The notes beneath the pieces were generated by a model. The model was not told where the DNA came from. It worked only from the letters and a program-made list of their open reading frames with translations, and searched no databases. From Elusimicrobia bacterium RIFOXYA2_FULL_39_19 (GTDB lineage: Bacteria; Elusimicrobiota; Endomicrobiia; CG1-02-37-114; XYA2-FULL-39-19), in assembly GCA_001800285.1 (NCBI GenBank), contig MGVC01000005.1:18476-82475 (forward strand): a DNA stretch of 64,000 nucleotides. Reading direction: 5' to 3'. Positions 1 to 22,863 of the stretch are shown piece by piece; the first letter of the stretch is position 1, and each line of letters begins with the position of its first letter. Both the position numbers and the translations under genes were made by a program.

Positions 1-2837
1 TCTTTGTTTTCATTTACGGCTATTTCAAACAGCGTATCCTGGCCCTGCACCATTTTGTTTCTTCTTTCCAGCAGTTCTTCCAGCTGGTCTATGGCTTTTG
101 CGCGCACATAGGAAGGCAGGGAAATTTTATCTTTTAAACCGGTAAAATCAAAAGCGCCCGCTTTTATAAGCGATTCTATTACTTTTTTATTTACCTGGCG
201 GGTATCTACTCTCATGCAGAAATCCTGTAAAGATTTATACGGCCCGCTTTTGCGCCTTTGCTCAATTATTTCTTTTACTGCCATTTCACCAACGTTTTTA
301 ATTGCTAAAAGGCCGAAACGGATTTTTTCGCCTTCTACGGTAAAGGGCATATCGGATTTTAATACATCCGGCGGCAGAACTTCTATGCCGGATTCTTTGG
401 CTTCCTGAATGTAGCTTACCAGGCGCGAACCCTCTTCTTTTGCCAGGGAACTCCTGCCTATTTCACTTATCAAAAGCGCGCAGGTATATTCCAGCGGGTA
501 ATTTGCTTTCAAATAAGCGGTGCGGTAAGCCAGCAACCCGTAAGCGGCGGCGTGAGATTTATTAAACCCGTACCCGCCGAAATGCACCATGAGGTCCCAG
601 GTTTTTTTGGATATTTTTTTATCTACGCTGTTTTTATGCGCGCCTTCCATAAAGCTGACTTCCAGCTTTGCCATTTCTTCCGGAATTTTTTTACCCATGG
701 CCTTGCGCAGTACGTCAGCCTGTCCGGCTGTAAAGCCTGCCAGTTTTATGGCTATCTGCATAACCTGTTCCTGGTACACTATAACGCCGTAAGTATCTTT
801 AAGTATCGGCTCCAGGCAGGGATGGTCATACTTGATTTTGGTTTTCTGGTGTTTTCTGGACACAAAGTCATCTATCATACCGGAACCCATGGGGCCTGGG
901 CGGTACAGGGAAACCAGCGCAATAATATCTTCAAATATGGTAGGTTTAAGTTTTCGTAAAAGGTCTTTCATGCCGGAAGATTCCAGCTGAAACACGCCGG
1001 AAGTTCTGGCTTCCTGAAGCAGTTTGAAAGTATTTTTGTCATCCAGGGGCACTAAAGACAGGTCAAAGTTTTTATCCTTATTGGCATTTATAAGTTTCTG
1101 CGCTTCTTCAATAATGGTAAGCGTGCGCAGACCCAGAAAGTCCATTTTCAACATGCCTAATTTTATAAGAGCGTCATCATTATACTGTGTGGTTACTACT
1201 TCTTCATCGCCGATGGTTTTGCGCGTAGCGCGGATAAGAGGCGCAAACTTTGTAATTTCATCTTTGGCAATCACCAGCCCGGCGGCGTGCACGCCCTGGT
1301 GCCTTTTCAGGCCTTCCAGTTTCATGGAAATATCTATCATTCTTCTTATGCCTTCATCAGAATTATAAATATCTTTCAGTTCTTTTACGTTGGTTATAGA
1401 CTGGTAAAGCGTAGAGCCCTGCGGGATAAGTTTGGCTATGCGGTCGCCGTCTGCTACGGCAAAACCCATTACGCGCGCCACGTCGCGCACTACCAGGCGC
1501 GCCTGCATGGTGCCGAAAGTGATAATCTGGGCTACGTTTTTTTCGCCGTATTTGTTTCTTACATATTTTATTACTTTATCACGGCCGTAATCTGCAAAGT
1601 CTATGTCCAGGTCAGGCATGGTTTTTCTGTCGGGGTTTAAAAATCTTTCAAACAGCAGGCCGTATTTTAGCGGGCAGATATCCGTAATACCCAGTGAGTA
1701 GGAAACTATGGCTCCGGCACCGGAGCCTCTGCCGGGGCCAACGGGCACGCCGTTATTTTTAGCGTACTGCACAAAATCATTTACAATTAAAAAGTATTGC
1801 GAAAAACCCATTTTACTAATTACCGATAGCTCAAAATCCAGCCGCGCTTGTATTGCCGAGGTCACTTCTTTATATCTTTTCTTTAAACCTGCTTCGCAGA
1901 GTTTTCTTAAATAGGTATCTGCGGTTTCCCCTTTTGGAACTTCATAGTGGGGCAGGTAGGTCTGGTCAAAACTTAAGCGCAGATTGCACTTTTCGGCTAT
2001 TCTTATGGTGTTTTTTATGGCTTCAGGATAGGCGCTGAAAACTTTCATCATTTCTTCTGGCAGTTTATAATAAAACTGATTTGTGGAAAATTTCAAACGG
2101 GTCGGGTCATCAAGTTTTTTACCCGTGCCTATGCATAAAAGCGCATCGTGCGATGTGTAGGCGTCTTCTTTGTGCAGGTAGTGGCAGTCATTGGTGGCAA
2201 CAATGGGTGTTTCAGTTTTGTTGGCAAGCTCAATAAGCTTCGGTAGTACTGCCCTCTGCTCTACCATGCCGTTATCCATAATCTCTATATAAACATTTTC
2301 CGCGCCGAAAATATCTTTATACTTATCCAGCAAATCATACGCCAGTTCTTTATTGCCGGAAGCCAGCGCTTCGGGTATCTGGCCGTGCAGGCAGCCGGTC
2401 AGGCAGATAAGCCCCTTGCTGTATTTTCTAAGCACTTCATAATCAACGCGCGGTTTATAATAAAACCCTTCCAGAAAACCTATGCTGACTAAACGCATCA
2501 GATTATTATAACCTTCAAGGTCTTTTGAAAGCAGGGTTAAATGGAAAGTTTTGCCTATGGTTTCCGGTTTGCTTTTGTCTAAAATTCTGGTTTTATCGGT
2601 GACATAAACCTCACAGCCTACAATGGGTTTAATGCCTTCATTTATGCAGGTAGAGTAAAACTCTATGGCGCCGGACATATTGCCGTGGTCTGTAATGGCC
2701 AGGGCAGGCATTTTATAGCTGGATACAAATTTTATCAGCTCTGACGGGCCGCCTTTATCGTTTACAATACGGCAGGCGCCGTCAAGCAGTGAATATTCCG
2801 TATGATTGTGCAGATGTACAAACTGTGAATTCGGCAT
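1..2837 (-). CDS. dnaE: DNA polymerase III alpha subunit (DnaE), N-terminal ~945 aa; C-terminal part lies beyond window start
   Basis: Minus-strand translation from ATG (complement of 2835-2837) gives MPNSQFVHLHNHTEYSLLDGACRIVNDKGGPSELIKFVSSYKMPALAITDHGNMSGAIEFY..., the canonical DnaE PHP-domain N-terminus. No stop is reached before position 1. An RBS-like AAGGA sits 5 nt upstream. The six-frame track shows only short antisense ORFs on the plus strand here. Confidence 0.85.
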   Translation of the reverse strand, partial: MPNSQFVHLHNHTEYSLLDGACRIVNDKGGPSELIKFVSSYKMPALAITDHGNMSGAIEFYSTCINEGIKPIVGCEVYVTDKTRILDKSKPETIGKTFHLTLLSKDLEGYNNLMRLVSIGFLEGFYYKPRVDYEVLRKYSKGLICLTGCLHGQIPEALASGNKELAYDLLDKYKDIFGAENVYIEIMDNGMVEQRAVLPKLIELANKTETPIVATNDCHYLHKEDAYTSHDALLCIGTGKKLDDPTRLKFSTNQFYYKLPEEMMKVFSAYPEAIKNTIRIAEKCNLRLSFDQTYLPHYEVPKGETADTYLRKLCEAGLKKRYKEVTSAIQARLDFELSVISKMGFSQYFLIVNDFVQYAKNNGVPVGPGRGSGAGAIVSYSLGITDICPLKYGLLFERFLNPDRKTMPDLDIDFADYGRDKVIKYVRNKYGEKNVAQIITFGTMQARLVVRDVARVMGFAVADGDRIAKLIPQGSTLYQSITNVKELKDIYNSDEGIRRMIDISMKLEGLKRHQGVHAAGLVIAKDEITKFAPLIRATRKTIGDEEVVTTQYNDDALIKLGMLKMDFLGLRTLTIIEEAQKLINANKDKNFDLSLVPLDDKNTFKLLQEARTSGVFQLESSGMKDLLRKLKPTIFEDIIALVSLYRPGPMGSGMIDDFVSRKHQKTKIKYDHPCLEPILKDTYGVIVYQEQVMQIAIKLAGFTAGQADVLRKAMGKKIPEEMAKLEVSFMEGAHKNSVDKKISKKTWDLMVHFGGYGFNKSHAAAYGLLAYRTAYLKANYPLEYTCALLISEIGRSSLAKEEGSRLVSYIQEAKESGIEVLPPDVLKSDMPFTVEGEKIRFGLLAIKNVGEMAVKEIIEQRRKSGPYKSLQDFCMRVDTRQVNKKVIESLIKAGAFDFTGLKDKISLPSYVRAKAIDQLEELLERRNKMVQGQDTLFEIAVNENK

Positions 2838-2847
2838 TTATTCCTTT

Positions 2848-4026
2848 CTATATTCCCAAATCTGTGGGCGCCCGGCCTATACTGCGCAGCAGGGCAATAA
2901 CTCTGCTGATATTAGCGGTTACTTTTATGTCTGTACCGGCTCTTTGGGGATAGATTTCATAAAGTTTCCGGTATTTTTCGGGTGTCAGGTTTATCATCAG
3001 CGAATTTCCGCCCGCCATTAAACCGCTTTTGGCGCCGTTTTCTTTATCCAGCGTTTCTAATGATGTGGTAACAAGTATTTTTGCTTCCGGGCAGGCAAGG
3101 CGCGCTTTGGCTATGGCGTTTAACGCCAGTTCCAAAGACGGTTTGTTTTCATTTGCCAGCGGTGTCTGCGGATGCGGTATAAAAGGCCCGAAAGAAAACA
3201 TATCCGTGCCAAGCGCTGTAGTAAGTTTGATATCATTTTCTAAATCTTCCCGGGTCTGCCCCGGCAGGCCTGCTAAAAATCCGGTAAAAATCAGGTAACC
3301 CATGTCCCGCAGCTGTTTAATCAGTTCCAGGCGTTTATTAAAATCACTGTCCGGTTTCATTTTTTTATATAACTGCGGATTGCTGGTTTCAAACCTTAAC
3401 AGCACGCCGCGGGCGCCTTCGTCATACAGGCGTTTATAAAAAGATATATCTTTTTCCCCTACGCTTAAAATAAGCAGTATGGGTGTTTTTTCCATTATGG
3501 ATTTTACTACAGAACCCATTATTTCTGCTGTATAGCTGTCATCTTCACCGGACTGCAGGACCAGCGCTTTAAAACCGTGCAGATTTATTGCGTCAGCCGC
3601 CGACTGAATAATTTCATCGGGCTCCATTTGGTATCTTTTAAGCTGTTTATTATCTTTTCTTAAACCGCAGTACAGGCAGTTATGTTTGCAGTAGTTTGAA
3701 AATTCTATTATTCCGTGCACACAGCAGGAATTGCCGGAATATTTATGGCGCACGGCATTGGCCTTTTCATACATGGTTTTTGTTTCCCGGGCAAGGTTTT
3801 TATCTACCTGTGCAAGCTCATGAAACATTTCTTTCCAGGACTCCAGCACCGGCAGGGCCTCGCGCTCTGATATTCTTTGGATTACCAGCCCGCCCTGGGC
3901 ATAAATGTATTCGCCTAAAGCAAGGTTATAAAATTCATTTCTTGCTTTCTTTTGCTCACCGAAGTATTCTACGGTGATTATTTTATCGTTAATTTCTACT
4001 ACTTTTCCCGGAATGGCGTAGCACAT
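2848..4026 (-). CDS. hydE: HypC/HupF-family N-terminal domain fused to a HydE-like (BioB-type) radical SAM maturase
   Basis: N-terminal MCYAIPGKVVEI...GEYIYAQGGLVIQRISEREAL matches HypC signature MC(L/I)AIPxKV...VHVGFA. Residues ~110 onward carry SNYCKHNCLYCGLRKDN (CX3CX2C), which closely resembles the HydE motif NVCRKNCLYCGLRRDN, followed by a BioB-like TIM-barrel-length region. Confidence 0.65.
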   Translation of the reverse strand: MCYAIPGKVVEINDKIITVEYFGEQKKARNEFYNLALGEYIYAQGGLVIQRISEREALPVLESWKEMFHELAQVDKNLARETKTMYEKANAVRHKYSGNSCCVHGIIEFSNYCKHNCLYCGLRKDNKQLKRYQMEPDEIIQSAADAINLHGFKALVLQSGEDDSYTAEIMGSVVKSIMEKTPILLILSVGEKDISFYKRLYDEGARGVLLRFETSNPQLYKKMKPDSDFNKRLELIKQLRDMGYLIFTGFLAGLPGQTREDLENDIKLTTALGTDMFSFGPFIPHPQTPLANENKPSLELALNAIAKARLACPEAKILVTTSLETLDKENGAKSGLMAGGNSLMINLTPEKYRKLYEIYPQRAGTDIKVTANISRVIALLRSIGRAPTDLGI

Positions 4027-4040
4027 TTTGTTTTAGGGGT

Positions 4041-5498
4041 TCAGTAAAACAAATCCCGTTCTCCATTTTTTATCTGCGCCAGTTTATCTGTTACCTGCGC
4101 ACGCATTTTCTTATCTTCAATTTTGTTTAAATAATGGTTTATTAATTTATAGCCGGGTTTGTAGGCGCCGTTTTGTTTTGCAAAATCTTCCAGATATTCA
4201 GCAAAGGTCAGCAGGCCGTTTACCCGGCAGAATTTATGTATTTCACCTGGTTTGGACAGTTCCATGAAATGTTCACCGGTCCTGCCCAGCCGGTAACATG
4301 CCGTGCAGAAACTTGGCAGCAGTTTTTGCGGCAGAATGGATTTTATAACTTCGCTTAAAGAACGTTCATCACTTACTTCAAACTGCACGCCCTTTTTTTT
4401 GTTTCCGTAACCGCCCACTTCCGTAACACTGGCGGCGGACGCCTGGGAAATACCCAGTTTAAAAGCCTGTTTTCTTATCTGCGCGCTTTCCCGGGTGCTG
4501 ATAATCATGCCTGTGTAAGGGACAGCAAGGCGCAGTATGGCAATAAGTTTTAAAAAGTCATTATCTGCTACCGGATATTCCGGCTTATAAGTTACAGACG
4601 GCGCTGGCCGGAATCTGGGTACAGAAATAGTGTGCGGGCCGGTGCCGTGCTTTTTTTCCAGGTAATCTGCGTGCATAATAAGAGCCAGCACCTCAAAGCG
4701 CCAGTCATAAAGCCCGAATAAAACACCGAGGCCTATATCATCAAGGCCTGCTTTGAATGCTTTATCATACGCGGTTAACTGCCTTTGATAATCTGCTTTT
4801 AAGCCTGTATGCAGTTTTTCAAAAGTTTCTTTGTGGTAAGTTTCCTGAAAGAGCTGGTAGGTGCCTATTTTTGATTTTTTAAGTTTCCTGTAATTTTCTT
4901 CAGTGGTGGCGGCAATGTTTACGTTTATCCGGCGTATTGAACCCCTGGGTGTTTTTACAGAGTATATGGTTTCTATGGCTTTGGTTATGTAATCAATGGT
5001 ATTTTTTTCACTGTCTTCGCCAAGCTCCAGCAAGACTCTTTTGTGGCCTGCATTAATAAGGTACGTTACCTGGGCCTTAATTTCTTCAAAAGAAAGTTTT
5101 TTTCTTTTAAGCGCGGTATTTTCTTTATGAAAATTGCAATAATCGCAGTTATTAACGCAGTAATCGGAAATATACAGCGGGGCAAAAAATACAATTCTTT
5201 CGCCGTAAATTTCGTTTTTAATATGGTTTGCCGTTTCAAATAGCTTATTGATAAGTTTTTTGTTTTTTAGGTTTAGCAGTATGCCCGCTTCTTTAAGACT
5301 GAGGCCTTTTTTCTGACGGGCTTTTTTAAGTACTGCTAAAACAGCTTTATCAGCAGGACTTTGTGTCTGCTTTAAAATACCGTTTATAACCTGTTCATTT
5401 ATTATGTTCATAACATATTTTCCTGTTATTTTTCTGATCCTCTCCACTTGCAGATTGTGTCGCAATTTTGGAATGTAGTGGCCAAGCTTGCTTGGCAA
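4041..5498 (-). CDS. hydG: [FeFe]-hydrogenase-type radical SAM maturase HydG (ThiH-like tyrosine lyase)
   Basis: N-terminal CVNNCDYC (CX3CX2C) radical SAM motif. C-terminal CTACYRLGRTGEHFMELSKPGEIHKFC is an exact CX2CX22C second-cluster motif diagnostic of HydG. Size is 485 aa. Confidence 0.8.
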   Translation of the reverse strand: MPSKLGHYIPKLRHNLQVERIRKITGKYVMNIINEQVINGILKQTQSPADKAVLAVLKKARQKKGLSLKEAGILLNLKNKKLINKLFETANHIKNEIYGERIVFFAPLYISDYCVNNCDYCNFHKENTALKRKKLSFEEIKAQVTYLINAGHKRVLLELGEDSEKNTIDYITKAIETIYSVKTPRGSIRRINVNIAATTEENYRKLKKSKIGTYQLFQETYHKETFEKLHTGLKADYQRQLTAYDKAFKAGLDDIGLGVLFGLYDWRFEVLALIMHADYLEKKHGTGPHTISVPRFRPAPSVTYKPEYPVADNDFLKLIAILRLAVPYTGMIISTRESAQIRKQAFKLGISQASAASVTEVGGYGNKKKGVQFEVSDERSLSEVIKSILPQKLLPSFCTACYRLGRTGEHFMELSKPGEIHKFCRVNGLLTFAEYLEDFAKQNGAYKPGYKLINHYLNKIEDKKMRAQVTDKLAQIKNGERDLFY

Positions 5499-5640
5499 TA
5501 TTAAATAGCACCGTCTTTTATCATCTGTCTGCCGACCAAGACCTACTATCCTTCCAAGCGGATGTCTGTAGGCACGAATAATGTTGCTGGTCGGCCACTA
5601 CCATTATAACACAGTATGTTGCGTGATGGCGAAGTGATGG
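5499..5640 (-). ncRNA. Candidate structured 5' leader RNA (nested helices) between hypA and hydG; unassigned class
   Basis: Minus-strand read: GTTATAATGG (a -10-like element), then GTAGTGGCC...GGCCACTAC enclosing GGCCGACCAG...CTTGGTCGGC and hairpin GCCAAGCAAGCTTGGC. These are long-range complementary segments within a 140-nt noncoding gap. Confidence 0.25.
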
Positions 5641-5648
5641 GTGTGGCT

Positions 5649-5999
5649 TTACTTATCGCCTTCTATGCTTTCAAGATATATGTCTTTCCCCGAAACCAGC
5701 TCAATATTTTTGCTTTTACATTTCGGGCACCCATCAAAAGTAATGGTGTCCGCAGTAATTTCTTCCCCGCAATTCAGGCATTTTGAGCGCAGGGGCTCTT
5801 TTATTACAACAAGTTTTGCTTTGTCTGCTATGGTGCCGGGAAATATATGATCTATAAAACTGTGGCGCAACAGGTCTTCCAGCACACCGCCGGCTTCGCC
5901 TAGCTTTACTGTTACCTTGGTTACTTTTTTGAGGTTATTGTGCTTGGCTTCTATTAATAGTTTTTCAAACAAGTCTCTTGCTATACCGGTTTCATGCAT
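5649..5999 (-). CDS. hypA: Hydrogenase nickel-incorporation protein HypA/HybF
   Basis: MHE start, 116 aa, C-terminal zinc motif CLNCGEE...CPKCKS (CxxC-Xn-CxxC), typical of HypA. Confidence 0.8.
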   Translation of the reverse strand: MHETGIARDLFEKLLIEAKHNNLKKVTKVTVKLGEAGGVLEDLLRHSFIDHIFPGTIADKAKLVVIKEPLRSKCLNCGEEITADTITFDGCPKCKSKNIELVSGKDIYLESIEGDK

Positions 6000-6040
6000 T
6001 GGAGTTTTCTCTTTCTTTGGGTTATTTAGGTTGATAAACG

Positions 6041-6403
6041 TTGGCAGGTGTTTCCTGTAGGAACATTCTACAAAATAAGGGCTCTCAATTCAAACAAAAT
6101 GAAATCATGGTAGCCATTGCCGCCAGAACACGATTGATTGACAATAATCTTCACTATTTATATAATTCTTTTATGGCAGGCGAAATAGGAATTTCCAAAT
6201 GGTTGTCGTATTCTTCAGCGCAAAAAATAAAACATTTAAAAACTACCGAAAATAAACGCGCCGTTAAACTGCAGAAATTAACCTACGCACAAGCTGTAAA
6301 ACAAACCCACCAGTTGCTCCGTTATGTAGATTTATTGCCGCATAAAACACGCAGGCATAAACCTGTTGGTATTGGAGTTACCCTTGGCACACATAAAGTT
6401 TGA
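6041..6403 (+). CDS. Hypothetical ORF in hypA upstream gap (doubtful)
   Basis: 120-aa ORF from the track with no recognisable motif and no RBS seen. It may be spurious within a 427-nt intergenic/promoter region. Confidence 0.12.
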   Translation: MAGVSCRNILQNKGSQFKQNEIMVAIAARTRLIDNNLHYLYNSFMAGEIGISKWLSYSSAQKIKHLKTTENKRAVKLQKLTYAQAVKQTHQLLRYVDLLPHKTRRHKPVGIGVTLGTHKV

Positions 6404-6426
6404 AGACGGCGTGCTATTATTTCTGC

Positions 6427-6981
6427 TTACTTTTCCTGCAATAAAATAACGTTGCAATTCTTGTCAAATTCCTTTAAAACTTCCTGGCTGACTCTTTTAT
6501 AAATCTCAAAATCTTCATACACTATGGCAAACACACCGCTTTCTGACGGCTCTGCATTAATTGAAAGAATAGTTTTACCGTCATTCCATTTCAGCGTGCC
6601 GTCATTTATGCAGGCAGGCCCATAAATTGCATTATAATAATCGCATATTTTTCCGTGAAACCCGCAAAATTCATCCATAGAATCATTATCATTTATGGAA
6701 TAAATTGTATGTATGCTGTACAACTGCCTGTCGTAAAATATCAGATTAACATATTTCACATATTTGTTATCAACGTCGTTTAACAGTACATTGCCCCAAT
6801 GTTTACTGCTTTCCATATCCTTTTTATAGTTGCCGGTAAAAACCAGGTTGCTGAAACTGGTACCCAGCGTGTAGCCGTAAAGAGTGCGTTTCAGGCTTGG
6901 GCTTGAACGAAGAAGGGCCTGAGCGTTTAACATACTCATAAAACCGGATAAAACAATTAAAAACATTATAATCTTTTTCAT
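6427..6981 (-). CDS. Secreted Cys-containing hypothetical protein (signal peptide)
   Basis: N-terminal MKKIIMFLIVLSGFMSMLNAQA signal peptide; 184 aa; several Cys (CGFHGKIC, CIND). Lies directly downstream of the PorV-like gene on the same strand. Confidence 0.55.
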   Translation of the reverse strand: MKKIIMFLIVLSGFMSMLNAQALLRSSPSLKRTLYGYTLGTSFSNLVFTGNYKKDMESSKHWGNVLLNDVDNKYVKYVNLIFYDRQLYSIHTIYSINDNDSMDEFCGFHGKICDYYNAIYGPACINDGTLKWNDGKTILSINAEPSESGVFAIVYEDFEIYKRVSQEVLKEFDKNCNVILLQEK

Positions 6982-7070
6982 AAAGCCTCCATTTTTTATA
7001 ACACCCTCACCTCAATCCTCTCCGATGAGGAAAGGATGAAAACAGAAGTATAATTTTGTTTTAATAAGTC

Positions 7071-8186
7071 TTATGGTGCAATATTATTTTCTGGCATGGG
7101 TAAACTTTCCAGCTTTTCTTCAGCCGGCACAACTTCCGGAACTGCTTGTATTTGTGGTTGCGTTTGGGTTTCCGGCGTTTTTTCTTCCTTTGCTTCTGGT
7201 ACAGTTGTCTGTACCAAATCTTTGCTTTTATTATATTTAAAAGGCATAGTCAGCGAAAGCCTGTAAGTATTTCCTAAATATCCGTACGGAGAAAAAGAGC
7301 AGTCCACATTTCCATAAGCACTGTTTATCCCAAACCCTGCAGACAACCCGCTGTCTGCCTGGTTGCGCCCGTTAAAACCAAGCCTTAGTTTTAGAATATG
7401 CAGTAAAGTATATTCAGCACCCATATTGATTATTAGCGGAACATCTTTTGAAAAGGTTGTATCAAAAGCAAAAAGCAGGTTTTGTTCAGGCAGAGTGTAT
7501 GCCGCGCCCAGTTTAAAATTTAACGGCAACTCTTCCTGCGTGCTGTAGAATTTTGCCCTTGTGCCAAGGTTTTGCAATACAGCTCCTGACTGAAAAACCT
7601 CATTGAATTTATACAAACATCCAATATCAATTGCTATTGCCTGTGTTTTTACAAAATCAATTCTTTCGTTTATATATTTCACGCTTAACCCGGCAGACAG
7701 CTTATCATTTAGTTGTTTTCCGCTGCCTAATGTCACCGCCATATCCTGTAAAAGATACTCACTCAGGCCATAGCCATTTCTATTTGAAATAGTAGTCCTT
7801 TGAATTGTGCCCCAGTCAACAATATTTATACTGCCGCCAAAACCAGTATTGGACACAAAGGCAAAATACCGCTGATTTATTTTCTGCAGCCAGAAAGTGT
7901 GCATAAAGTTTACTTCACTTCTTTTTATAACAGCCAAGCCGGCAGGATTATAGTACAAAGCATTAAAATCATCCGCTACGGCTGTAAAGGCCCCGCCCAT
8001 ACCTGCAGGCCTTATGCCTGTATCCAGCCTTAAAAAACCAAAAGGCGTAGTACCCGCACCTTCAGCAGACAAACGGATAGGCGCAGATAAAACACAGAAT
8101 ATACCGGCACAGAAAATCCAGAGCAGAACTCTGCTGTGTTTTCCTTTTAGAAATGAAAGTGTATTTTTTATAATTACCAGTTTCAT
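7071..8186 (-). CDS. PorV/PorQ (LptO)-family outer-membrane beta-barrel, T9SS cargo-shuttle-like
   Basis: Signal peptide, then GAGTTPFGFLRLDTGIRPAGMGGAFTAVADDFNALYYNPAGLA, a family-defining N-terminal motif of PorV/PorQ/UPF0164 barrels. Alternating beta-strand pattern with aromatic C-terminal region. Start ATG overlaps the giant gene's stop (ATGA at 8183-8186). Confidence 0.55.
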   Translation of the reverse strand: MKLVIIKNTLSFLKGKHSRVLLWIFCAGIFCVLSAPIRLSAEGAGTTPFGFLRLDTGIRPAGMGGAFTAVADDFNALYYNPAGLAVIKRSEVNFMHTFWLQKINQRYFAFVSNTGFGGSINIVDWGTIQRTTISNRNGYGLSEYLLQDMAVTLGSGKQLNDKLSAGLSVKYINERIDFVKTQAIAIDIGCLYKFNEVFQSGAVLQNLGTRAKFYSTQEELPLNFKLGAAYTLPEQNLLFAFDTTFSKDVPLIINMGAEYTLLHILKLRLGFNGRNQADSGLSAGFGINSAYGNVDCSFSPYGYLGNTYRLSLTMPFKYNKSKDLVQTTVPEAKEEKTPETQTQPQIQAVPEVVPAEEKLESLPMPENNIAP

Positions 8187-11100
8187 TTTATTATCCCCAG
8201 CTTAAATACTTTTCTCTCTCCCGTGCTTGACACAATAACCGCCAGATACCCGCCGCTTGCTAATTCAGAGCCGTTATTATTTTTTACATCCCAGTTAAAT
8301 GTACCGGATGATTCAATATAACTGTCAAAAACCAGTTCACCGCTTACCGTATAAATATATATTTTTACCGCTTCCGTAAGATTTTCAAATACTATACCGG
8401 ACTGCGAATTGCCCTGGCTGTAGGGAATACCGTTATCATCAGCACCGTCATAAGGCACATACGGGTTCGGATAAACCAACACATTATCAAGGTTATTTGA
8501 AGCAGCTGCAAATATACCAAAAAGGCTGAAATGGCCTACTTGTATAGATGCCGTATTATTAATTTTGTCTACTGTTGTTTCCGAATCCTTTTTCCAAATA
8601 CGGGATGATTCATCATAATAAAGGATTTTTATATTTTCTTCCCGCATATCCGTATCATCAATTATTCCGTCATTATCTTCATCTGCGTAAGCTATAATTA
8701 TAGTTACATTTTTCAATAAGGTTTTCTGCCCGCTTGCCAATTCAATACTTCTGAACATTCCCGCGGATTTATATTTCCTGTCTGATGACGGAATTGAAAG
8801 CGGGTTAATGGCTACTTTTACCAAATCAAAAGAACCGGAAAGAGCCCCCTCCGGGATAATAATTTCGGTAAAATGTTTTTTATTAATATCAGCTAACTTA
8901 ATGCTGTTTTCTACATTGTTATATATTTTCTGTGTTTTTTCCGGGACCCCATTTTGTATTTTTTCTTCCATATCAGGGCTTATTCTGTCAATGACTACAT
9001 TAACCGTTTCCGGATTATTGTCATAATTTCCTGTCTTATCATAAGCTACACACCTTAACTGATAATTCCCCTGCAAGAAATCAGATTCATTGCTTACATC
9101 CCAAAAATAGTTATAAGGGTATGTTGCATCCGGATTGGTAAACAACGAACCAGTAGAATAAATATTATGCCATTCATCCTCAGAAGCCTTCCTGTACTGG
9201 AAATAAACATACCTGATATCAGAACTCTCACCTGATGTTATCTCGCTGGTCAACGTTATCCTGTTGCCGCTTATTTTCTCGCCTTCTTTAGGCGCTGTTA
9301 TTTCAACCTTTGGCAAATCCACATAGTTTGATATATTTGTTATCCTGAATTCTGAAGACTTATAAGGAAATGTATTGTTTTTATCTGAAACCATAGTCTG
9401 GGGCACAATAGTCAAACCGCTAAACTCTTCAAGCCGTATACCGGTATAATCATTTTCTGTTGAATTCATTGAAAGATCTGTATAACCCACATCTCCTACA
9501 ATATATAGTTTTACTTCAGCGGTTGATATATAAAGACCGGTTGATTCTATTGATAGACTTGCCATTCCTGAAACGAAATTCATGTTTGGATTGGCTCCTG
9601 TTGAATGTGGAATGGATGAAATAAATACATCAGTTGTTGCATCAAATTTTCCATCACCATACGGAAAAGCAGCACTGGTTGCCTCTTTCCAGATACTCAG
9701 GCACGAAAAATCACCCTGGCCCTTTCCCGGAATAAGCGATGTTTCTACCGTACCTGTTTGTTTAAGCGTTATATTGGTAAGTAAAGCATGGTTAGTATTA
9801 GTTTTCAGCCGTAATAACATAAGCGGAACATTTTTGCTTCCATATTTCGTATATACAGGGGCATAATTTTCTGATTTTACAATCAGCCCTATAGGGGTTA
9901 CCGGGAGCAGGCTGGTTTTACAGTAATCAAAACTTGTTGAATTGCCTAACTGTACGCCGGTATTGGTTTCAAGTACCAATAATGGAGAAACATCGTGCGG
10001 CAATCTTAACTTTATCCAGCCGCTGTCTGGAATTTTCAGGCCTATTGTATTTCCAGCAACCGCATTATCACCCATATCGTAAGCTATGAAATATGTTTGA
10101 TTTGATGGATTAAGTTTCTGTATGTTTGTCAGATAAATCATTTTTGTTTTGCTTAAATCATTGCTTAAATCAAACATATCAACTTTTTTAATTAAATCAC
10201 CGGAATTTAATTGTTTTCTTACGGTACCGTACTTCCCGCGTTCAACTATCCTTAAAAACGGTTTCGGCCCTGTTGGCGTAATTGTAGTTCCCGCCAGGGA
10301 ATACCTCATAATCTCATCGCCTGCTTTTACAAGCAGCTGCTGTTGCCCGGTAGGGAAAGTTCCTGTAAGAGTAATCGTTGACTCAACTATCAAATCAAAA
10401 GGCAGTGGTGTATATATTGAGATATAATTATAGTATACCCCATCGGAACATAACGAACTTATTTTTGTTTCTGCCTCTGAGATGCACTGGTCATCGGCGT
10501 CAAGAATGTTGTTGTAGTTTGCGTCTCTAAATATTTTTATATACTTCACATCAGAGTTTCTTCCCTCCGGTTTTGTCTGGTCCAAAGGGCCGCCTGTGCC
10601 GGTACGCTCAACCTGAATAGCGTCCCAGTTACAATTGGATTTATCGGTACGCAGTTTTAGCCTCATCATTTCTACGTTTGACTGGGACTGAAATGCACCG
10701 CTTGCAAAATGCACGTAATAAGCGCTGTCTGATACAGTAGCAGATACAGCAACCTGAACTTCCTTTATTTCTGCTGTCTGAGTTATAAACGGAGCTGTAG
10801 GCCAGAGAAATTCTACACCATCCGGAACCTGTACAGTAAAATATGTTTTGTCCAGAATACTGGCTCCTACTGTTTTACTTATTTGGGCAAATTGGCTGAT
10901 ATCATAAGTTAAATAGTATGTCTGTAGTGTAGCGGTTATGGTTCTGGCGTCATAATAGTTGTCTTCTGTTTTAAGCAACAGCGTGGCAGCCTTTTCAGTG
11001 AACGTATCACTGCCATAAGTTATTAGGCCGCAAGGCTGGCTGTTTATCATAACTGTTGATTCAAACACGCTGTATTCAGAAGTAGATGTAATTACTTTCC

Positions 11101-14100
11101 AGATTTTAATCTTACTCACATCAGCATCTACTCCTGTCCCGGTTAAATTAACTTTTATGCTTTCCCATAAAGCGGTATTTCTATTTGTTTTCATTGACAA
11201 TTGTATTACTGGTACATTTTCTGCATAACGTTCTACAGTACTCATTAATTCTGATGAGGGGGTTATATACACAGTATCAACGGTTGCTACAATCGGCATA
11301 TTAGCAGTTTTTATAGGAAAGGCAGGTATCTCACCTAATCCAATAGGCACATAAGTTGATACTCTGTGCCGCATCTCTTCTGACGGATGATTTACGCCTA
11401 TTTTGTCCTCTCCTGTTATTTCTGCGCCAATTATTTCATTTTGCCAGGAAATAAGCGGATGAGAGAATTTAGCCGACGGGCTGACATCATAAGTTATGAA
11501 ATATGCCGTTGGCGTGGTAGTAACAAGTATATAACCCCTGTTAATTGCCGGGTCATTTAAGTAAAGGCGGCCTCTGGAATTATCATAAACGCCTGAACCA
11601 ACAAGCGTGTCAGCAGTTACAATTCCCCTGTATTCAGGTGAAGCAAATCTATCCAGCCTGCTGTTTCCATTATCATCACGGTAAACTTTTATATTTAGTA
11701 AATCACTGTCTGCACCGAATAATAAGTATGACGGCGTGGTACGGGTTATGGTAATGGTACCCATTTCCACCTGAAAACCGTCAGCCCATAAATCAAGTTT
11801 CTCTACTGCAAAGTTTTTCACTCCCTGAGTTACCTGCACGCCAAAAACTACACCCGATGAATGACTGGCAGCAAAACTGCCCAGAACACCACGGGTAATG
11901 CCTGTAATAGAATTTGCTGTTTTTCCCGTGTATTTTATAATTTCACTTTCTATAACTGCATAACCGCTTGCAGGAATTGCCAGTGTTGGCGTAGGACGGC
12001 CCAGGGAATCATTTGAAAACAGATAAAGGACATCTGCGCCTGCACTTAAATTTCCACTTAACCGCGGAACCTCGTAGGTTGAAAGTGTGCCTGTTTCTTT
12101 TGGGTCATCATCAGAAAAAATCGGGGCTGATTTTACAAATATAGTCCTGGGTGATGATGCTATTGTTTTTAAAGTGCTTTTCCAGGGAAGGCCGATGTCA
12201 TCCAGATTATCGGGTTCTGATATGAAATCATCTTCGGTTTGAACGAGATTATCTTCATCTGTCGGGAAGCTTTCTGCTGTAAGTCTTACACCAAGGTTTT
12301 TTGGGTCACCGGTTCTGGGGTTAGTGGTTAATGCAGTTTCGCTGATATCGTAAGTTATAAAGTATCTTTGCGATTTTGCTACTCCGGCTCTGGCGGCAGT
12401 AATTATTTCCTGTACCTTACTTGAATTAAATCTGATAAGGGTTGCTAACGCATCGCCGGCATTACTGAATGTTCCAGAACCTACCAAAACATCATAGTCT
12501 GTGCCTGCATAAAAATAAGGGGTTACCGGACTTTTATTTAACATTCTGTCATTATTTGCGTCATACCAGACTTTAACTACCGGTACTTCCTCCTGCACGG
12601 CGCCGCCATCGTAAGAGGCTGTACCGGTGGAATATATTCTGATTGCATACCACAAAGCTTCAGACAAATCCGTTTCCAGGGTAAACTGCGCCATAACATT
12701 ATCTACTGAACCCTGAACTAAATATTGTGTATAAATATAATCAGTTGGTTTCACCAATACATCATCAGGATATTCTTTAACCTGTGACACGTAAGATTCA
12801 GTCCACCCTGTTGCCGCCCATTCAGTGCCAATCCACTGGTTATTTCTAGGGCTTCTTAAACCTACCTGTGCCTGCACATTGCCCATATAATCCGGAGAAT
12901 TGATGGTGAAGTAACCGGTTGATGGAATTTCCACGCCCAGTTTAAGCGACGCATCTACCGTACAAACAGGGCTGTAATCAAAGGTAATAAAATAATTTTT
13001 AGGTGTTTGCCGGATTTCCTGCACCCCACTAACGTCACCTACTATATCCAGCCGTGCCGGGCCAGACACAATAGCTCCGCTGGTATGGGATTTAGCGGTA
13101 GTTTTATCCTGCCCGCGGACAACACCTGTAAACAAATTATTATCTTCATCAACCCCGGTATAAGTAACTATTTCAAGTTTTGACGGGTCCCCGTTATCAT
13201 CAATAATTAATTTACCCGGCGCCTTAGGCACAGAACAAAATGGCGGGAAGAAAACCCCAATATCAGCTACCTCAATTACACTGGCAGACTCATTAATACT
13301 TTCAGCTAATTCTGATACAGGAAACTCCATAAGTGAAAATTGCGGGTTCTGGTCAACCACCATCGAATCGGTAACTTCGAACATTCCGTCATTGTTGCTG
13401 TCATACCACAGCTGTATTTTATCTACATCTGTAGGCAGGCTGAGTGTTCCTTCCGGCACGCCTGATGTGGCATTTCTGTATATAGACCTATCAAGTTTCA
13501 GTCCGCCCCACAGGCCGGTTCTCTGAACTGTTGCCATGGTAAGTTTCATTACCGTTATGTTTGCATCACCCTGGGTTACTACCCCGGTTACAGTAAAATT
13601 CACGCTGGATACACTGGTTTCCTGTTTGTTTACGTTATAAACATTCAGTTCATCAACTGTGGCTGTCACTACAACTTTGGTAGATTCAATAGAGGCATAA
13701 GACTGCATAGCACCTTCTAATAAGGTTATGCCGTTTATCTGGGCACCGTGCGTATAACCGGGAGTAGCGGAATTTTCAATTTTGTAGGTTATAAAAAAGT
13801 ATCTGCTGGTACAATCAATTAACTGAGGTGTTGAAAGCATACACTGGGCGCTTCTGTCTGTAAACGGTACCCAGTTTGTCAACGCATCATCGCCTCCGGG
13901 TTCTAAAGCTCCGTTGGGGTTTGAACCAGCATCTATCCTGCCGTCATTCGGGCTGGAATCTTTTCCGTCCATATATATTTTTACGCCTACTATGTCATAA
14001 TCCTGGCCGGTGCCTGTTCTGCCTACTTTTATTTCGCTTATCGCCCCCTGAAACATAGGGGCGCTGAATGCTACCCTTAACATTCCAATATCAGATTCAC

Positions 14101-17100
14101 CCTGCTGCATGTAGGAGTAAGTAATAGGCTGTGTGGTGCCTTCAAGTTGGTAATAAGCGGCAATATCCGTTAACTGCGCATAAACTTTCGGCGGTGATTT
14201 TTCTACTGCCCAGGTGGTGGTAACTATTTCAAAATTGGCCTGGGACACACCAATAGTTCCTGAAGTTTGTATAGACTGGTAACTCTGCAACCGTAACCCA
14301 AAATATGTACCGGTAGTTGCGCTGGTGGCTATGCGCACTGCAATGAAATACGTTTTAGGTAAAGTATTTACTGAAACTTCTGGTTTTACGCTTAAATTTC
14401 TGAAGTACCAGGCGTCAGTGCCCGCATCATACTCAGCATCACAAAGTTTAGTGTCTGTTGGTTGGCCGCCACTTACAAGTTCCGGGTCAAAGTAATAGTT
14501 GCCGCTTGCGTCATAGTAAAGACTCATCTTACTAATACTGCTGGAAGGCGTATTGCCAAATTTTTCTACTTTTATCTGTTCCAGTTTTTCTGTAAGATTG
14601 GCTTCCACAGGCAGGGTTACCATAGTAAGTCCGGCCATACCAAACGGCTGGAAGTTTTCTACAATATCCCCGTCACCCTGATACACTTTCTTAGAAATAA
14701 CTCTTGATAGATAATTAGAACCTCTCAACAAATTTTCCGGGTCTAATATCGGTGTTACTTTTATGCCTGAAGTTACCAGGTTCGCATCTGAATGTGCTGT
14801 TTCAACTCTTGTGCTGTCATTAGTCCAGCCGTACACTACACCATCCGCAGGATAATCCAGCGCCTGAGTAACAGGAGATGCATAATGAGTAGCGCTGATT
14901 TTTAGTGATTCCTGCATCTGGTTGATTACCTGCAACCCCTGCCAGACACCGCTGTCACTTTCTGTATAAGCATAATAGGTTGCACTGCCGGGCATAGCTC
15001 TTAGTGTTACTGCGGTAGTGGAGCCGGTATGTGCAAACTTTATTATACCTTTATAATACTGACCGTTGGTGCTATCGCCGGATGCCACATTACCAAACCG
15101 GTCTCTGGCTTTTACGGTAACCGTGCCGTTTGAATTTACCGGCAATGGATTTGTTAAGGGATAACTGTGGTGAATTGTAAAAAACCTTGCAGGAGCAGGA
15201 GTGATATACTGGTTCTGTGTTGCAGATACTAACTGTATTGAACCGCAGGTTCCCTCAGCTCTCAATGTACTGGTACCGGCTTTTGTATCAAAGAAATATA
15301 TGGAATGCTCTGAAGAACCCGGGGGTATAATACCCGGCAGGAAACCGCCCTCGCAAATACTGGGCCAGTCAGCGCTAAGCATTAAATTTTTTAAAGGGTT
15401 TTCACCGGCACGGGCAGAAGTTGAATTTGTACAGGTATAAACTATGCTTGTAGCATCAGAAGAAATAGTAACATTATCTGACTGGTCCCTTAACTGGATA
15501 GTTATCACTGTAACGGTTTGAACACGGTTTGAATAAGAGCTTAATGGAACAGGTAAAACGGCTGATGAAAACGGATTGTAGCCTTGCACGGAATATGTAG
15601 AAACAACACTTCCTAAATTTCCGGAGCCGGTATACGCAATGGTTGTACCAGCAATTAATCTTCTTGATTCCGTTATAAAAACAAAATGATGGGGGTTCCC
15701 CGCAACTACTGAATAAGTCTGCACAGCTACAGCCCAATCTGTCTTTGCCGGGTTCTGCGCAGTTATTTGAAAATTCCCCAGATTGGTATCTATCATGTAA
15801 AAACTGGTGGTGTCATCACCTATATTTAACGTAACAATATCAACCGCAGGTTTTGCTACCCACCCGGAAGTAATATTTGGCGAAGCAAACCTCACATTCC
15901 CTGTACCGGTAGAATTAAGGTCAAAGATACTCATAACTTCTTCACCTGTAATTACCGGTGACGGGTTGGAAAACTTGTCCTGTGTCTGCAGTAAAAAAGC
16001 TGATGATGTAGTACCGGCCGCCAATATCTGATGAGATGATATTATGGCCAGTTTCTTTATTGGTGATGCCGTTATCGGTACGTATTGGCCGGAGCCCGGT
16101 GTTTCCCAACTTCCGCTTGAAGCTTTTACATGAGGCATGGTGGAAGCAGCAATATTATATGGCGGATAAGTTTTTGATGCTTTTGTATCTGCATACCAGA
16201 ACTGGGTGGCATATTGGCCGGCTGAAATTGAAGCCGTTGAGGTGTGCATCCACGGTGAAGATGTAAGTGAGAAGGAATAATTTCTGCCGTATTCCGTAGT
16301 GGCAATAGTATCCACTTCGCTTTCAAACGTTAACCTGTGCAAATAATCTATGCGCAATGAATTACCTGCCCCGGAATCACTCTGCAGGTTCATGGTAGTG
16401 TCTACGTTTACAGCTTTCGGGTTGCCGTAAGTATCCTGTGTTTCTATTTCAAGCACCTGCAAGCTATTCTGGTTGTTATAAACTATACCCGCCAGTAACG
16501 GCAGTGTGGTTGAAGGAATAACATCAAAACCTACCTGAGTTATAGCGCCCGGGTTTACATTAAATGTTGTTGAACCAACATAGATACCATACTCAACAGA
16601 AGCTGTCCATTTACCTATTGACGGACGCGCAGGCAGAGCGGCGGTAGCCGTGCCCTGAGAACCGTCTTCGCCTGCAGGCCATGAAGCATACATATCTGAA
16701 TACCTGAATGATGCCTGTGAATTGGCTGCAGGTACCGGCCATACTGCCGCGGACCATATAGGTATAGCTACATCATACATGCTCAGCATAGTATCGGTAG
16801 TTTTATTCCAATATTTCTTCTGTGAATTTAGTACAGAAGGTGAATCAGTTTTCAGCTGGGTGCCGATAGAAAGAGAAACTATGTTTGTTTCACCCGTCGG
16901 GTTATTCCAGTAATCGCGTTTTTCAAAAGTAAATACGGTAGATTTTATGTTACCCGCAGAAGCTTCAATGTCTGACGGTGTAGTTACAAACTGGAAGCGG
17001 TATAAATCACCGCCGGTAGTCATAATGTTTACAGATTTACCTGTAATGGTTGCACCCGCAGCGGTAGATACCTGCACCTTGGCATAATGGCCTCCGGTAG

Positions 17101-20917: not shown

Positions 20918-21129
20918 TTTTCCTCAAATACCTACCCCGTGCAGTTTTCATCCTGATCTATCCTTTTACAATAGGATATCTGGATATTGCTCATAAAAAA
21001 AAACAATTTGAAAACTATCGCAGGGGTAAAGTGAAAACGATATCCTGTGAACAAAGATGTTTGGAATACAGGGTAAACGTCACACATGCATCCATCCGCG
21101 GGCGATCCCGTGAAAGTCTGCTGCCGTTT

Positions 21130-21166
21130 AAAAAACCGAGTGAAAGCATTGGAAAATGCCACTCGG
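21130..21166 (-). terminator. Intrinsic terminator hairpin plus U-tract in leader of giant gene (possible riboswitch expression platform, or 3' terminator of the hydrogenase operon)
   Basis: Minus-strand CCGAGTG-GCATT-TTCC-AATGC-TTT-CACTCGG followed by TTTTTT (7-bp + 5-bp stems with bulge). Confidence 0.5.
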
Positions 21167-21238
21167 TTGAGTTTACGACACTGTAACCTTACTGCGGTTT
21201 TTGGCGGCCTGGCGGTCATTGGACATTCCTCTTTTTTA

Positions 21239-21330: not shown

Positions 21331-21514
21331 ATCAATTTTTGTCAGTTTTGGTTTTGTAGAGCCAAGGTAATTTGTGCTTTTTGTCACACCCTGATATGTA
21401 TATAGTATGGAAAGATAGTAAAGTCAAGGCTTATTTACATAAACTTTACCGATGATTACTGCGGATTTGGGGTTTTAGGATTTGAGGTGACTAAAATTTC
21501 TGCTATTTGGTGTG

Positions 21515-22177: not shown

Positions 22178-22200
22178 TAAATATAAAACCTACAATAAAG

Positions 22201-22852: not shown

Positions 22853-22863
22853 TTTATATACCT

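Follow-up and report, generated by a model that had tools for sequence, protein, structure and literature searches.

A hypA-hydG-hypC::hydE gene module linked to [NiFe] hydrogenases in Elusimicrobiota and other uncultivated bacteria

The genes hypA, hydG and a hypC::hydE fusion of Elusimicrobia bacterium RIFOXYA2_FULL_39_19 probably constitute a maturation module for the [NiFe] hydrogenase of their host, not an [FeFe] leftover, in which a tyrosine-derived Fe-CO/CN species made by radical-SAM enzymes would reach the large subunits by way of the HypC domain. It is established which genes these are, that hypC and hydE are fused, that the fusion is conserved and that its genomic link to [NiFe] genes is overwhelming; chance falls far short of explaining the arrangement, since about 100 independent loci show the same module. 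No description of a HydG–HypC::HydE module was found in the searchable literature.

The [NiFe] and [FeFe] hydrogenases are a textbook case of convergent evolution, and their maturation routes are held to be wholly separate, one starting from carbamoyl phosphate via HypF, HypE, HypC and HypD and the other from tyrosine via HydG, HydE and HydF. HydG and HydE have been known solely as builders of the [FeFe] cofactor. Where anaerobes obtain the CO ligand of their [NiFe] enzymes is an open question of long standing, for which a module that welds a [NiFe] iron chaperone to tyrosine-based CO/CN enzymes is a concrete and testable candidate. Moreover, its recurrence inside [NiFe] operons of many uncultivated bacteria points to an undescribed way of making the [NiFe] active site. 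If the proposed role is correct, annotation needs revision wherever genes are automatically named ‘[FeFe] hydrogenase maturase’ in genomes without an [FeFe] hydrogenase, inferences on H2 metabolism in candidate phyla of groundwater and sediment change, and a compact kit of two or three genes might serve the heterologous production of [NiFe] hydrogenases.

Genes and proteins of the module

The window, that is, the whole 64-kb stretch of DNA that was analysed (GC content 40.0%), carries hypA, hydG, the fusion gene and dnaE on the minus strand, which bears out the co-directional block of the preliminary description, and the order hypA-hydG-fusion is retained in the relatives L006, L010, L011 and L042-L044. 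The first gene, hypA (5649-5999), encodes a 116-aa HypA, a metallochaperone that supplies [NiFe] large subunits with nickel; it scores 87.6 bits with Pfam HypA (PF01155, gathering score 28.9) and 77.9 with TIGR00100, under the equivalog cut-off of 88.1. The N-terminal MHE nickel site and the zinc site CLNC-x13-CPKC can be read directly from the translation. The 237-nt spacer that follows on the minus strand (5412-5648) is peculiar to this lineage, hypA and hydG overlapping by 4 nt in relatives (L010, L011, L042-44). It gave no match in an Rfam search, its fold z-score is -0.6, and it holds a sigma-70-like match at 5632-5603 in a region where the count of such sites is not above that of shuffled sequences.

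The hydG gene (4041-5411, minus strand) encodes a radical-SAM tyrosine lyase of 456 aa from the ATG at 5411. A mechanical open reading frame extends to a TTG at 5498 (4041-5498), which is probably over-extended: the NCBI protein OGS23057.1 has 456 aa and relatives match the ATG. The whole protein scores 547 bits with TIGR03955 (cut-off 312.15) and aligns end to end with the structure 4WCX of T. italicus HydG at 505 bits. HydG is distinguished from ThiH by a C-terminal auxiliary-cluster motif, CX2CX22C, and this motif, noted earlier as exact, is present at residue 369; together with the radical-SAM CX3CX2C (CVNNCDYC, residue 85), all radical-SAM and auxiliary-cluster cysteines are kept. In an alignment read by eye, H247 matches a histidine of 4WCX that we take to be the ligand of the dangler iron. 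Proteins of this family cleave tyrosine to CO and CN- and build an Fe(CO)2(CN)(Cys) unit.

The fusion gene (2848-4026, minus strand, stop at 2848-2850) encodes 392 aa, 100% identical to NCBI OGS23056.1, and thus departs from stand-alone HydE proteins, which have about 330-360 aa and are encoded with hydF and hydA. The HypC-HydE fusion of the preliminary description is confirmed as a HypC-like part joined to a HydE part. An OB-fold HypC-like domain (3838-4026, minus strand, residues 1-63) scores 45.6 bits with PF01455 HupF_HypC (gathering score 28.5), 41.9 with TIGR00074, under the cut-off of 48, and 39 bits against T. kodakarensis HypC (2Z1C). HypC, HybG and HupF proteins share the motif M-C-[LIV]-[GA]-[LIV]-P, in which Cys2 is essential; the fusion begins MCYAIPGKV, a HypC-type N-terminus with Cys2 present and an invariant Tyr at position 3 in place of the usual L, I or V. 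Among 120 homologues, M1, C2, Y3, I5, P6 and Q44 are invariant, and an alignment to E. coli HypC places Gln44 at its His51.

The remainder of the fusion (2848-3837, minus strand, residues 64-392) comprises a linker helix and a HydE radical-SAM domain with CX3CX2C as CKHNCLYC at residue 113. TIGR03956 scores 256.2, barely above its cut-off of 254.6, and the next best model, PylB, reaches 126; residues 65-387 match T. maritima HydE (TmHydE) at 261 bits. In an AF2 model (pLDDT 94.4, pTM 0.92), the HypC domain forms five strands followed by a helix at residues 54-79, and the top ten Foldseek matches, all TmHydE (E about 1e-33, target-normalised TM-score 0.82-0.88), include structures binding Fe(CO)2CN species. 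An identity as HmdB was considered and rejected, with a score of 64.6 bits against a cut-off of 320.9, no Hmd or Hcg genes and HydE clearly the best model.

The gene for DNA polymerase III alpha, dnaE (1-2837, minus strand, cut by the window start; NF004226, 1251 bits), starts with an ATG at 2837 after the spacing AAAGGAATAA that follows the fusion's TAG, confirming a 10-nt gap. A terminator-like site was sought on the minus strand, and none lies between the two genes; dnaE is probably transcribed by read-through from the fusion gene. It follows the fusion at 3 of 99 loci only, all from close Elusimicrobia relatives, and a Na/Ca-exchanger gene intervenes in some of these. The adjacency is thus lineage-specific and incidental, and dnaE stands outside the module.

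Hydrogenase genes around the module

NCBIfam scans place an Mbh-Mrp-oxidoreductase group 4 [NiFe] hydrogenase operon at 21515-33490 on the minus strand, 15.5 kb from the module, and assign the remaining window to other genes, in agreement with the preliminary description, which had taken this enzyme for the only hydrogenase present. The operon encodes, all on the minus strand, an Fe-S subunit (21515-22177), Mrp A-G-like antiporter subunits (22201-28040), the large subunit (28043-29257), a NuoB-like small subunit (29776-30201) and the ShyC-like (31648-32475) and ShyB-like (32480-33490) oxidoreductase subunits. The large subunit has the L1 motif RxCGxCxxxH as RICGICSTSH, the L2 motif DPCxxCxx[HR] as DPCYCCTER and a C-terminal extension of 37 aa; with the NuoB-like and antiporter-like subunits, these are the marks of group 4. 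This hydrogenase is the probable client of the module. In contrast, tblastn and phmmer searches of the 64-kb window gave no match to HydF or an [FeFe] hydrogenase, upholding an earlier observation, and none to HypB, HypD, HypE, HypF, HycI or a free-standing HypC; the queries were E. coli HypB, HypC, HypD, HypE, HypF and HycI, an Omnitrophota HydF and a Firestonebacteria HydA H-domain.

The fusion is found in at least six phylum-level lineages, among them Elusimicrobiota, Omnitrophota, Nitrospirota, Margulisiibacteriota and Firestonebacteria. PF01455 and PF04055 occur together in each of the 120 best homologues, which are 58-75% identical, and every full-length family member begins (M/V)C-Y-x-I-P. 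A survey of 99 non-redundant fusion loci covered 1.10 Mb, and 54 of these loci extend for 5 kb or more on one side. At 61 of the 99, HydG is found within 500 nt of the fusion, and HycI, HypA or HypB within 3 kb at 39; any [NiFe] gene occurs within 10 kb at 45 of the 99, or at 33 of the 54 with longer flanks. With E. coli queries, HypD was found at none of about 125 loci, and HypE, HypF and free-standing HypC at no locus either; the same query set did detect HypA, HypB and HycI.

When neighbours were clustered without supervision, HycI (28 loci), the [NiFe] large subunit (27) and HypA (19) led after HydG and the fusion itself, and the rest of the top 12 families were Mrp-type and Fe-S subunits, the small subunit and ShyC. 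The common gene order is large subunit-HycI-HypA-HydG-fusion, often overlapping or abutting, and a gene for a HycI-type protease adjoins the module in most relatives. In L043, a relative with 72% identity, and in L009/L045, the hypA or hycI-hydG-fusion genes directly follow an Mbh operon. The adjacent large subunits are of several types (Mbh-Mrp, ShyBCDA-like and NuoF/HdrA-linked); where both ends lie within the locus, all have the C-terminal [NiFe] cysteine motif and a C-terminal extension of 7-37 aa, and all but one match the N-terminal motif. In addition, HypC::HydE::HydG triple fusions exist; all five that were looked up sit within [NiFe] operons, and one of these five belongs to a closed Omnitrophota genome of 1.52 Mb. 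The mixed NiFe/FeFe maturase context, which had been noted as unusual, is therefore noteworthy not as a one-off but as the rule for the fusion family, recurring across loci. As for other neighbours, a ThiF-family gene accompanies HydG at 7 loci, and a molybdopterin oxidoreductase adjoins the fusion in a 2.15 Mb Omnitrophota genome.

Proposed function and alternative readings

In the proposed pathway, HydG would cleave tyrosine and build an Fe-carbonyl-cyanide unit, as its 505-bit similarity to the T. italicus enzyme and its complete set of cluster ligands suggest, and the radical-SAM domain of the fusion would process this unit by analogy with T. maritima HydE. The N-terminal cysteine of HypC proteins holds Fe(CN)2CO; the HypC domain of the fusion, with its invariant N-terminal cysteine and a long helix joining it to the N-terminus of HydE, would capture the iron fragment and pass it to the apo large subunit. 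HypA would then insert nickel and a HycI-type protease would trim the C-terminal extension of the large subunit, as expected from their families. Several points stand against this reading. An H-cluster precursor is the simplest chemical expectation since HydG and the HydE domain look orthodox; the known HydG product has 2 CO and 1 CN, versus 1 CO and 2 CN at the [NiFe] site; and the HypC domain is without the conserved His51 and falls below the TIGR00074 cut-off. In the window, moreover, 15.5 kb separate the module from the hydrogenase operon, and the [FeFe]-linked clades and the loci without a hydrogenase gene that are described below count against the reading as well.

A stronger form of the proposal, which we regard as tentative, is that in these anaerobic lineages HydG and HypC::HydE fully replace HypC, HypD, HypE and HypF, with tyrosine giving both CO and CN by radical-SAM chemistry, the ligands being assembled on HydG and HydE and the HypC cysteine acting as carrier. 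This would be a second, HypDEF-independent [NiFe] pathway, the same pair feeding HydF/HydA in the few lineages that possess them, and, if true, it would connect the maturation machinery of one hydrogenase class with that of the other as a living link.

It is unlikely that HydG and the fusion simply mature an [FeFe] hydrogenase, with hydA and hydF lying elsewhere or missed in the MAG, the HypC domain being an accessory OB-fold and the proximity to [NiFe] genes reflecting co-regulation. HydG and HydE have orthodox sequences and folds, as this reading expects, and hydE, hydF and hydG are scattered in many genomes. At L004/L015 and L023/L078, moreover, HydF and a HydABC-type [FeFe] hydrogenase are encoded no more than 5 kb from the fusion and HydG, and at L025/L089 (Firestonebacteria-type) a true HydA H-domain is encoded upstream. 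Two fusion clades, L004/L023 and L025/L089, sit with HydF and/or true HydA, and the protein is evidently able to serve, or also serve, [FeFe] maturation. However, only 2 of 99 loci have HydF near the fusion, whereas HycI, HypA or HypB is near it at 39, and in a neighbour-joining tree, calculated without support values, [NiFe] contexts span the whole family and [FeFe] contexts form two small nested clades. Operons of several [NiFe] classes carry the module in translational coupling, triple fusions occur within [NiFe] structural operons, and an invariant Cys2 on a HypC fold is poorly explained as decoration. A canonical [FeFe] locus from Omnitrophota (L124) encodes HydF, HydG and an unfused HydE of 332 aa. 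Finally, the preliminary description had named a complete hydEFG-hydA set elsewhere in the genome as the conventional explanation for HydG and HydE; for HydA, no such gene is on record, as a tree-based survey lists no [FeFe] hydrogenase in RIFOXYA2_FULL_39_19 (96% complete) and likewise none in RIFOXYA2_FULL_40_6 (71% complete) (Méheust et al., bioRxiv 10.1101/765248, Table S3).

Still less probable is another client, in which Fe-CO/CN or some other organometallic species is made for Ehr-type complexes or another metalloenzyme, or the module senses or regulates the assembly of hydrogenases instead of supplying the [NiFe] iron. About half of the 99 loci have no hydrogenase gene in the available sequence, many of their contigs being short; the molybdopterin oxidoreductase mentioned above is an example of the other redox enzymes that some loci adjoin, and the ThiF-family gene beside HydG is of unknown role. 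RIFOXYA2_FULL_39_19 also carries an Ehr-type complex (Méheust et al., bioRxiv 10.1101/765248). Nevertheless, no alternative neighbour family recurs, and the leading clusters are [NiFe] maturation or structural genes. HypC, HypA and HycI are, moreover, specific to [NiFe] large subunits. Equally hard to credit are two unconnected functions in one polypeptide, the HypC domain taking part in the usual HypCDEF pathway with hypD, hypE and hypF elsewhere in the genome, HydG and the HydE domain doing something unrelated, and fusion and synteny being a historical accident spread by descent and transfer: hypD, hypE and hypF are indeed often distant from structural operons in other organisms, but accidental fusions are seldom so conserved, and this one persists in six or more phylum-level lineages, is confidently predicted to fold as two compactly arranged domains (pTM 0.92) and has had HydG fused on as well in a second lineage.

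Comparison with known maturation systems

The module resembles the HydE/HydF/HydG system of [FeFe] hydrogenases in the scores of HydG and HydE, their fold and all radical-SAM and auxiliary cysteines. It differs in that the window is without HydF and HydA, HydE bears an N-terminal HypC domain, and the genomic partners are not HydF and HydA but HypA, HypB, HycI and [NiFe] structural genes. The use of a HydE/BioB-like radical-SAM enzyme is shared with the HmdB/HmdC and HcgA-G system of [Fe]-hydrogenase, whereas Hmd and Hcg genes do not accompany the module and its HmdB score is far below the cut-off.

With the HypABCDEF and endopeptidase system of [NiFe] hydrogenases, the module shares HypA in the window, HycI and HypB in relatives, a HypC-like fold with the essential N-terminal cysteine, and the usual accessory-gene position behind the large-subunit gene. 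In that system, HypD, HypE and HypF provide the scaffold and the enzymes that turn carbamoyl phosphate into cyanide, and the HypC-HypD complex scaffolds Fe(CN)2CO. In contrast, neither the window nor 1.1 Mb of related loci contains HypD, HypE or HypF; the HypC of the module is fused to a radical-SAM enzyme and has Gln replacing His51, and the place expected for cyanide-making enzymes is taken by a tyrosine lyase.

HypX, a formyl-THF/CoA-dependent enzyme, is the aerobic route to the [NiFe] CO ligand. Like HypX, the module would be a dedicated extra source of a diatomic ligand for the [NiFe] iron; unlike it, the module is unrelated, radical-SAM based, oxygen-sensitive and from anaerobes. As for the fusion itself, the HydEF protein of green algae places consecutive maturases of one pathway in one polypeptide. 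The fusion of the module likewise joins hydrogenase maturases that would act in sequence, but in HypC::HydE and HypC::HydE::HydG a chaperone of the [NiFe] pathway is joined to enzymes of the [FeFe] pathway.

Gene content and surroundings of the maturase module

Four consecutive minus-strand genes, hypA, hydG, the HypC::HydE fusion gene and dnaE, form the block claimed in the preliminary description, and open reading frames, profile scores and motifs bear this arrangement out in full. The first, hypA (5649-5999), encodes 116 aa that start with MHE and contain CLNC-x13-CPKC; its product passes the Pfam HypA model at 87.6 bits and narrowly misses the equivalog cut-off of NCBIfam (77.9 versus 88.1). 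The gene hydG (4041-5411) encodes 456 aa from the ATG at 5411, the start used in NCBI OGS23057.1 and in all relatives, while the mechanical ORF opens at a TTG (5498). HydG is orthodox, matching T. italicus HydG over its full length (505 bits) and TIGR03955 with 547 bits (cut-off 312), and carrying CVNNCDYC and the exact CX2CX22C motif that had been read at the outset. ThiF sometimes adjoins such genes; identification as ThiH was rejected on the scores (ThiH 293, below its cut-off of 380, and HydG 547) and on the HydG-only C-terminal cluster motif.

The fusion (2848-4026) has 392 aa and is 100% identical to OGS23056.1 from an Elusimicrobia bacterium RIFOXYA2 MAG. Residues 1-63 match HupF/HypC (45.6 bits), and residues 65-387 match T. 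maritima HydE (261 bits) and TIGR03956 (256.2 versus a cut-off of 254.6); BioB, PylB and HmdB were rejected for the radical-SAM domain by profile scores and fold matches. The ATG of dnaE, at 2837, follows the fusion stop by 10 nt (AAAGGAATAA), the gap initially reported.

Between hypA and hydG lies a lineage-specific spacer of 237 nt (5412-5648) with a single sigma-70-like match at 5632-5603; in close relatives, the two reading frames share 4 nt. With nothing in Rfam that matches it and a z-score for folding of -0.6, the spacer was rejected as a riboswitch or structured leader. Promoter and terminator counts were not above those in shuffled sequence, so the scan gives nothing firm on transcription units. 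Because the gap is only 10 nt and a terminator-like site was not found, read-through from the module into dnaE is plausible. As a member of the module, dnaE was rejected: it adjoins the fusion in only 3 of 99 related loci, with a Na/Ca-exchanger gene between them in close relatives. Beyond dnaE, a further 9 kb carry comEC and unrelated genes. In an unrelated high-GC bacterium (locus L036, 6318-11038), a HydE/BioB-like radical-SAM gene comes after dnaE; it shares 38% identity with the HydE domain and is devoid of a HypC domain, and this adjacency is probably coincidental.

Hydrogenase of the window and its source genome

As first described, the sole hydrogenase in the window is a [NiFe] group 4 enzyme, identified by its motifs and subunit set. 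Its operon (21515-33490) encodes a large subunit with RICGICSTSH, DPCYCCTER and a 37-aa C-terminal extension; the small subunit is NuoB-like, and the other products are Mrp antiporter subunits and oxidoreductase subunits resembling ShyB and ShyC. Méheust et al. (bioRxiv 10.1101/765248) call this type 'Mbh-Mrp-Oxred'. A seed search of the whole 64-kb window confirmed that HydF and HydA are missing, and likewise recovered no HypB, HypC, HypD, HypE, HypF or HycI besides the fusion's own HypC domain. Among the RIFOXYA2 Elusimicrobia of that study, only RIFOXYA2_FULL_39_19 (96% complete) and RIFOXYA2_FULL_40_6 (71% complete) match the window in GC content; no [FeFe] hydrogenase is recorded for either, and about 20 related Elusimicrobia genomes follow the same pattern (bioRxiv 10.1101/765248). 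A complete hydEFG-hydA set elsewhere in the genome could have accounted for HydG and HydE conventionally; judging from the hydrogenase entries of that survey, which does not include HydF, a conventional hydA was not found (bioRxiv 10.1101/765248).

The Mbh operon and the module are 15.5 kb apart. In L043, a 72%-identical relative, hypA directly follows the operon, and the intervening block (6000-21514) therefore looks like an insertion; it holds genes for a 4244-aa surface protein (8183-20917) and a UPF0164/outer-membrane protein (7071-8186), and a small ORF of 184 aa (6427-6981).

The hydrogenase operon is directly preceded, on its own strand, by genes for a GAF-domain protein and for a radical-SAM/SPASM protein (33624-35377), the latter NirJ/AhbD-like and under all cut-offs. 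A minus-strand cluster (39788-43897) encodes B12-binding radical-SAM (HpnR-like, 239 bits, below cut-off), ThiF-like (41126-41926, away from the module), isoprenylcysteine-methyltransferase-like and FabF-like ketosynthase proteins, and may be a lipid-modification operon. Outside the module and the hydrogenase operon, the window, which has a GC content of 40.0% and ends about 250 nt short of the contig end, encodes regulators, a radical-SAM/lipid cluster, glmS, carAB, purF, pyrG, an ABC transporter, NfeD/Band7 proteins and pyruvate kinase.

Distribution and genomic context of the fusion

All of the best 120 database matches to the fusion (58-75% identity) carry both Pfam domains and derive from Omnitrophota, Elusimicrobiota and Planctomycetota MAGs, and genome and metagenome scans extend the family to Margulisiibacteriota, Firestonebacteria, Desantisbacteria, Nitrospirota and others. 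Every full-length member starts with (M/V)CYxIP; invariance extends to M1, C2, Y3, I5, P6 and Q44, to the cysteines of the radical-SAM motif and to many positions in the barrel, with Gln44 aligned opposite His51 of E. coli HypC. The AlphaFold2 model (pLDDT 94.4, pTM 0.92) is confident and compact, with two domains, an OB-fold and a HydE barrel, and a long helix (54-79) between them. Its closest structural matches are TmHydE entries, some with bound Fe(CO)2CN species.

Of 119 loci gathered, 99 (1.10 Mb), not counting the window, remained once redundancy had been removed at 97% identity, and all ORFs were annotated with seeds from the window, the related loci and the E. coli hyp/hyc region. HydG lies within 500 nt of the fusion in 61 of the 99; HycI, HypA or HypB lies within 3 kb in 39. 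An accessory gene at one or two copies per genome would be expected so close to a random gene in well under 1% of cases, by a rough, uncomputed estimate. Any [NiFe] gene occurs within 10 kb in 45 loci, or in 33 of the 54 that have 5 kb or more of flanking sequence on one side. Unsupervised clustering of neighbours ranked HycI (28 loci), the [NiFe] large subunit (27) and HypA (19) directly after HydG and the fusion, followed by the Mbh Fe-S subunit, Mrp subunits, the small subunit and ShyC with ShyB, and then ThiF (7) and HypB (6); Pfam backs the assignments made for HycI, ThiF, the small subunit, HypB and HydF. The usual orders are LSU-HycI-HypA-HydG-fusion and Mrp-FeS-HycI-(ThiF)-HydG-fusion (LSU and SSU, large and small subunit), and the stop codon of one gene often overlaps the start codon of the next. 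Each neighbouring large subunit with both ends in the locus has, in its C-terminal part, the [NiFe] cysteine motif and an extension that can be cleaved off; all but one of these subunits also match the N-terminal motif, and several hydrogenase classes are represented.

HypD, HypE and HypF were absent from the window and all loci (1.4 Mb with duplicates) when searched with E. coli seeds at E<=0.01, bar one 14-bit noise match; the identical seed set did recover HypA, HypB and HycI. The only HypC-like sequence in this material is the fusion's own N-terminal domain.

A library-wide HMMER search returned about 500 HydE-like clusters (50% identity, E<=1e-30), with HypC + HydE two-stretch forms on top. 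It revealed HypC::HydE::HydG triple fusions of 881-946 aa in Nitrospirota and Omnitrophota (P0242, P0255, P0392-P0411) and an 803-aa HydE::HydG form devoid of HypC (P0270). All five triple-fusion loci examined (L125-L129) lie within [NiFe] operons, ordered ShyB-ShyC-SSU-LSU-HycI-x-fusion, ShyB-ShyC-...-fusion-SSU-LSU-...-HypA or, in L126 from the closed 1.52 Mb Omnitrophota genome CP070797.1, Mrp-FeS-HycI-HypA-fusion. In contrast, an ordinary Omnitrophota [FeFe] locus holds two HydA genes, HydF, HydG and an unfused HydE of 332 aa.

Some neighbourhoods have further features. In 7 of the 99 loci, hydG is immediately preceded by a gene for a ThiF/MoeB-family adenylyltransferase, in the order HycI-ThiF-HydG-fusion (L009 at 7872-8633, L013, L025, L026, L068, L089 and others). 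Two loci of Firestonebacteria type, L025 (3-1631) and L089 (6487-8274), mix both systems, combining a NuoF-linked [FeFe] HydA, with TSCSPGW as L1 motif, with fusion-HypA-HypB and ThiF-HydG. In L001/L002 (7136-8587), from a 2.15 Mb Omnitrophota genome (ENA ERZ1286166 contig_28), the genes ahead of HydG and the fusion encode a molybdopterin oxidoreductase (Fer4/NrfD/catalytic subunit) and a protein of 483 aa that has no Pfam match, and no hydrogenase gene occurs within 10 kb.

Proposed function and relation to known maturation systems

From tyrosine, HydG generates both CO and CN- at an Fe(Cys) site, and HydE performs radical chemistry on the Fe(CO)2(CN)(Cys) unit of HydG. The N-terminal cysteine of HypC carries an Fe(CN)2CO unit to the large subunit, into which HypA inserts nickel and from which HycI cleaves the C-terminal tail. 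Because HypC and HydE, and in places HydG, are covalently joined in a conserved manner and occupy the accessory slot of [NiFe] operons, the most economical reading, which we consider probable, is that Fe-CO/CN made by HydG and HydE is channelled through the HypC domain to [NiFe] large subunits. The ligand count would have to change on the way, from the two CO and one CN in the HydG product to the one CO and two CN at the [NiFe] site. The N-terminal cysteine of the fusion may serve as carrier, or might even be what the HydG product binds as its 'cysteine' ligand. That the module constitutes a HypDEF-independent pathway is a more tentative proposition, less likely than not but a real possibility.

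Databases label the module genes '[FeFe] hydrogenase maturase', and a conventional role restricted to [FeFe] maturation would fit the loci with HydF or HydA. HydF is near the fusion in 2 of 99 loci, a true HydA H-domain was found in one further clade and at the edges of the HydF loci, and such a restricted role appears unlikely. A neighbour-joining tree built from 87 fusions, indicative only because it has no support values, shows [NiFe] contexts throughout and confines the HydF/HydA contexts to two small clades nested among them. Since some fusion clades also have HydF and HydA, the HydG/fusion pair may be able to serve both hydrogenase classes. It is improbable that the module serves another client or senses or regulates hydrogenase assembly, and equally improbable that the HypC domain and the HydE domain with HydG perform two independent functions in one polypeptide.

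In full-text literature, with subscription journals outside the scope, no description of a HypC-HydE fusion or of HydG/HydE in [NiFe] operons was found, and a Cell 2024 paper on hybrid archaeal hydrogenases, an Antarctic-lake MAG paper and a Paenibacillus 'hydEG' paper contain no relevant statement; an earlier description elsewhere, for example in subscription journals, is possible. The module is rated as a variant of known maturation systems, apparently undescribed.
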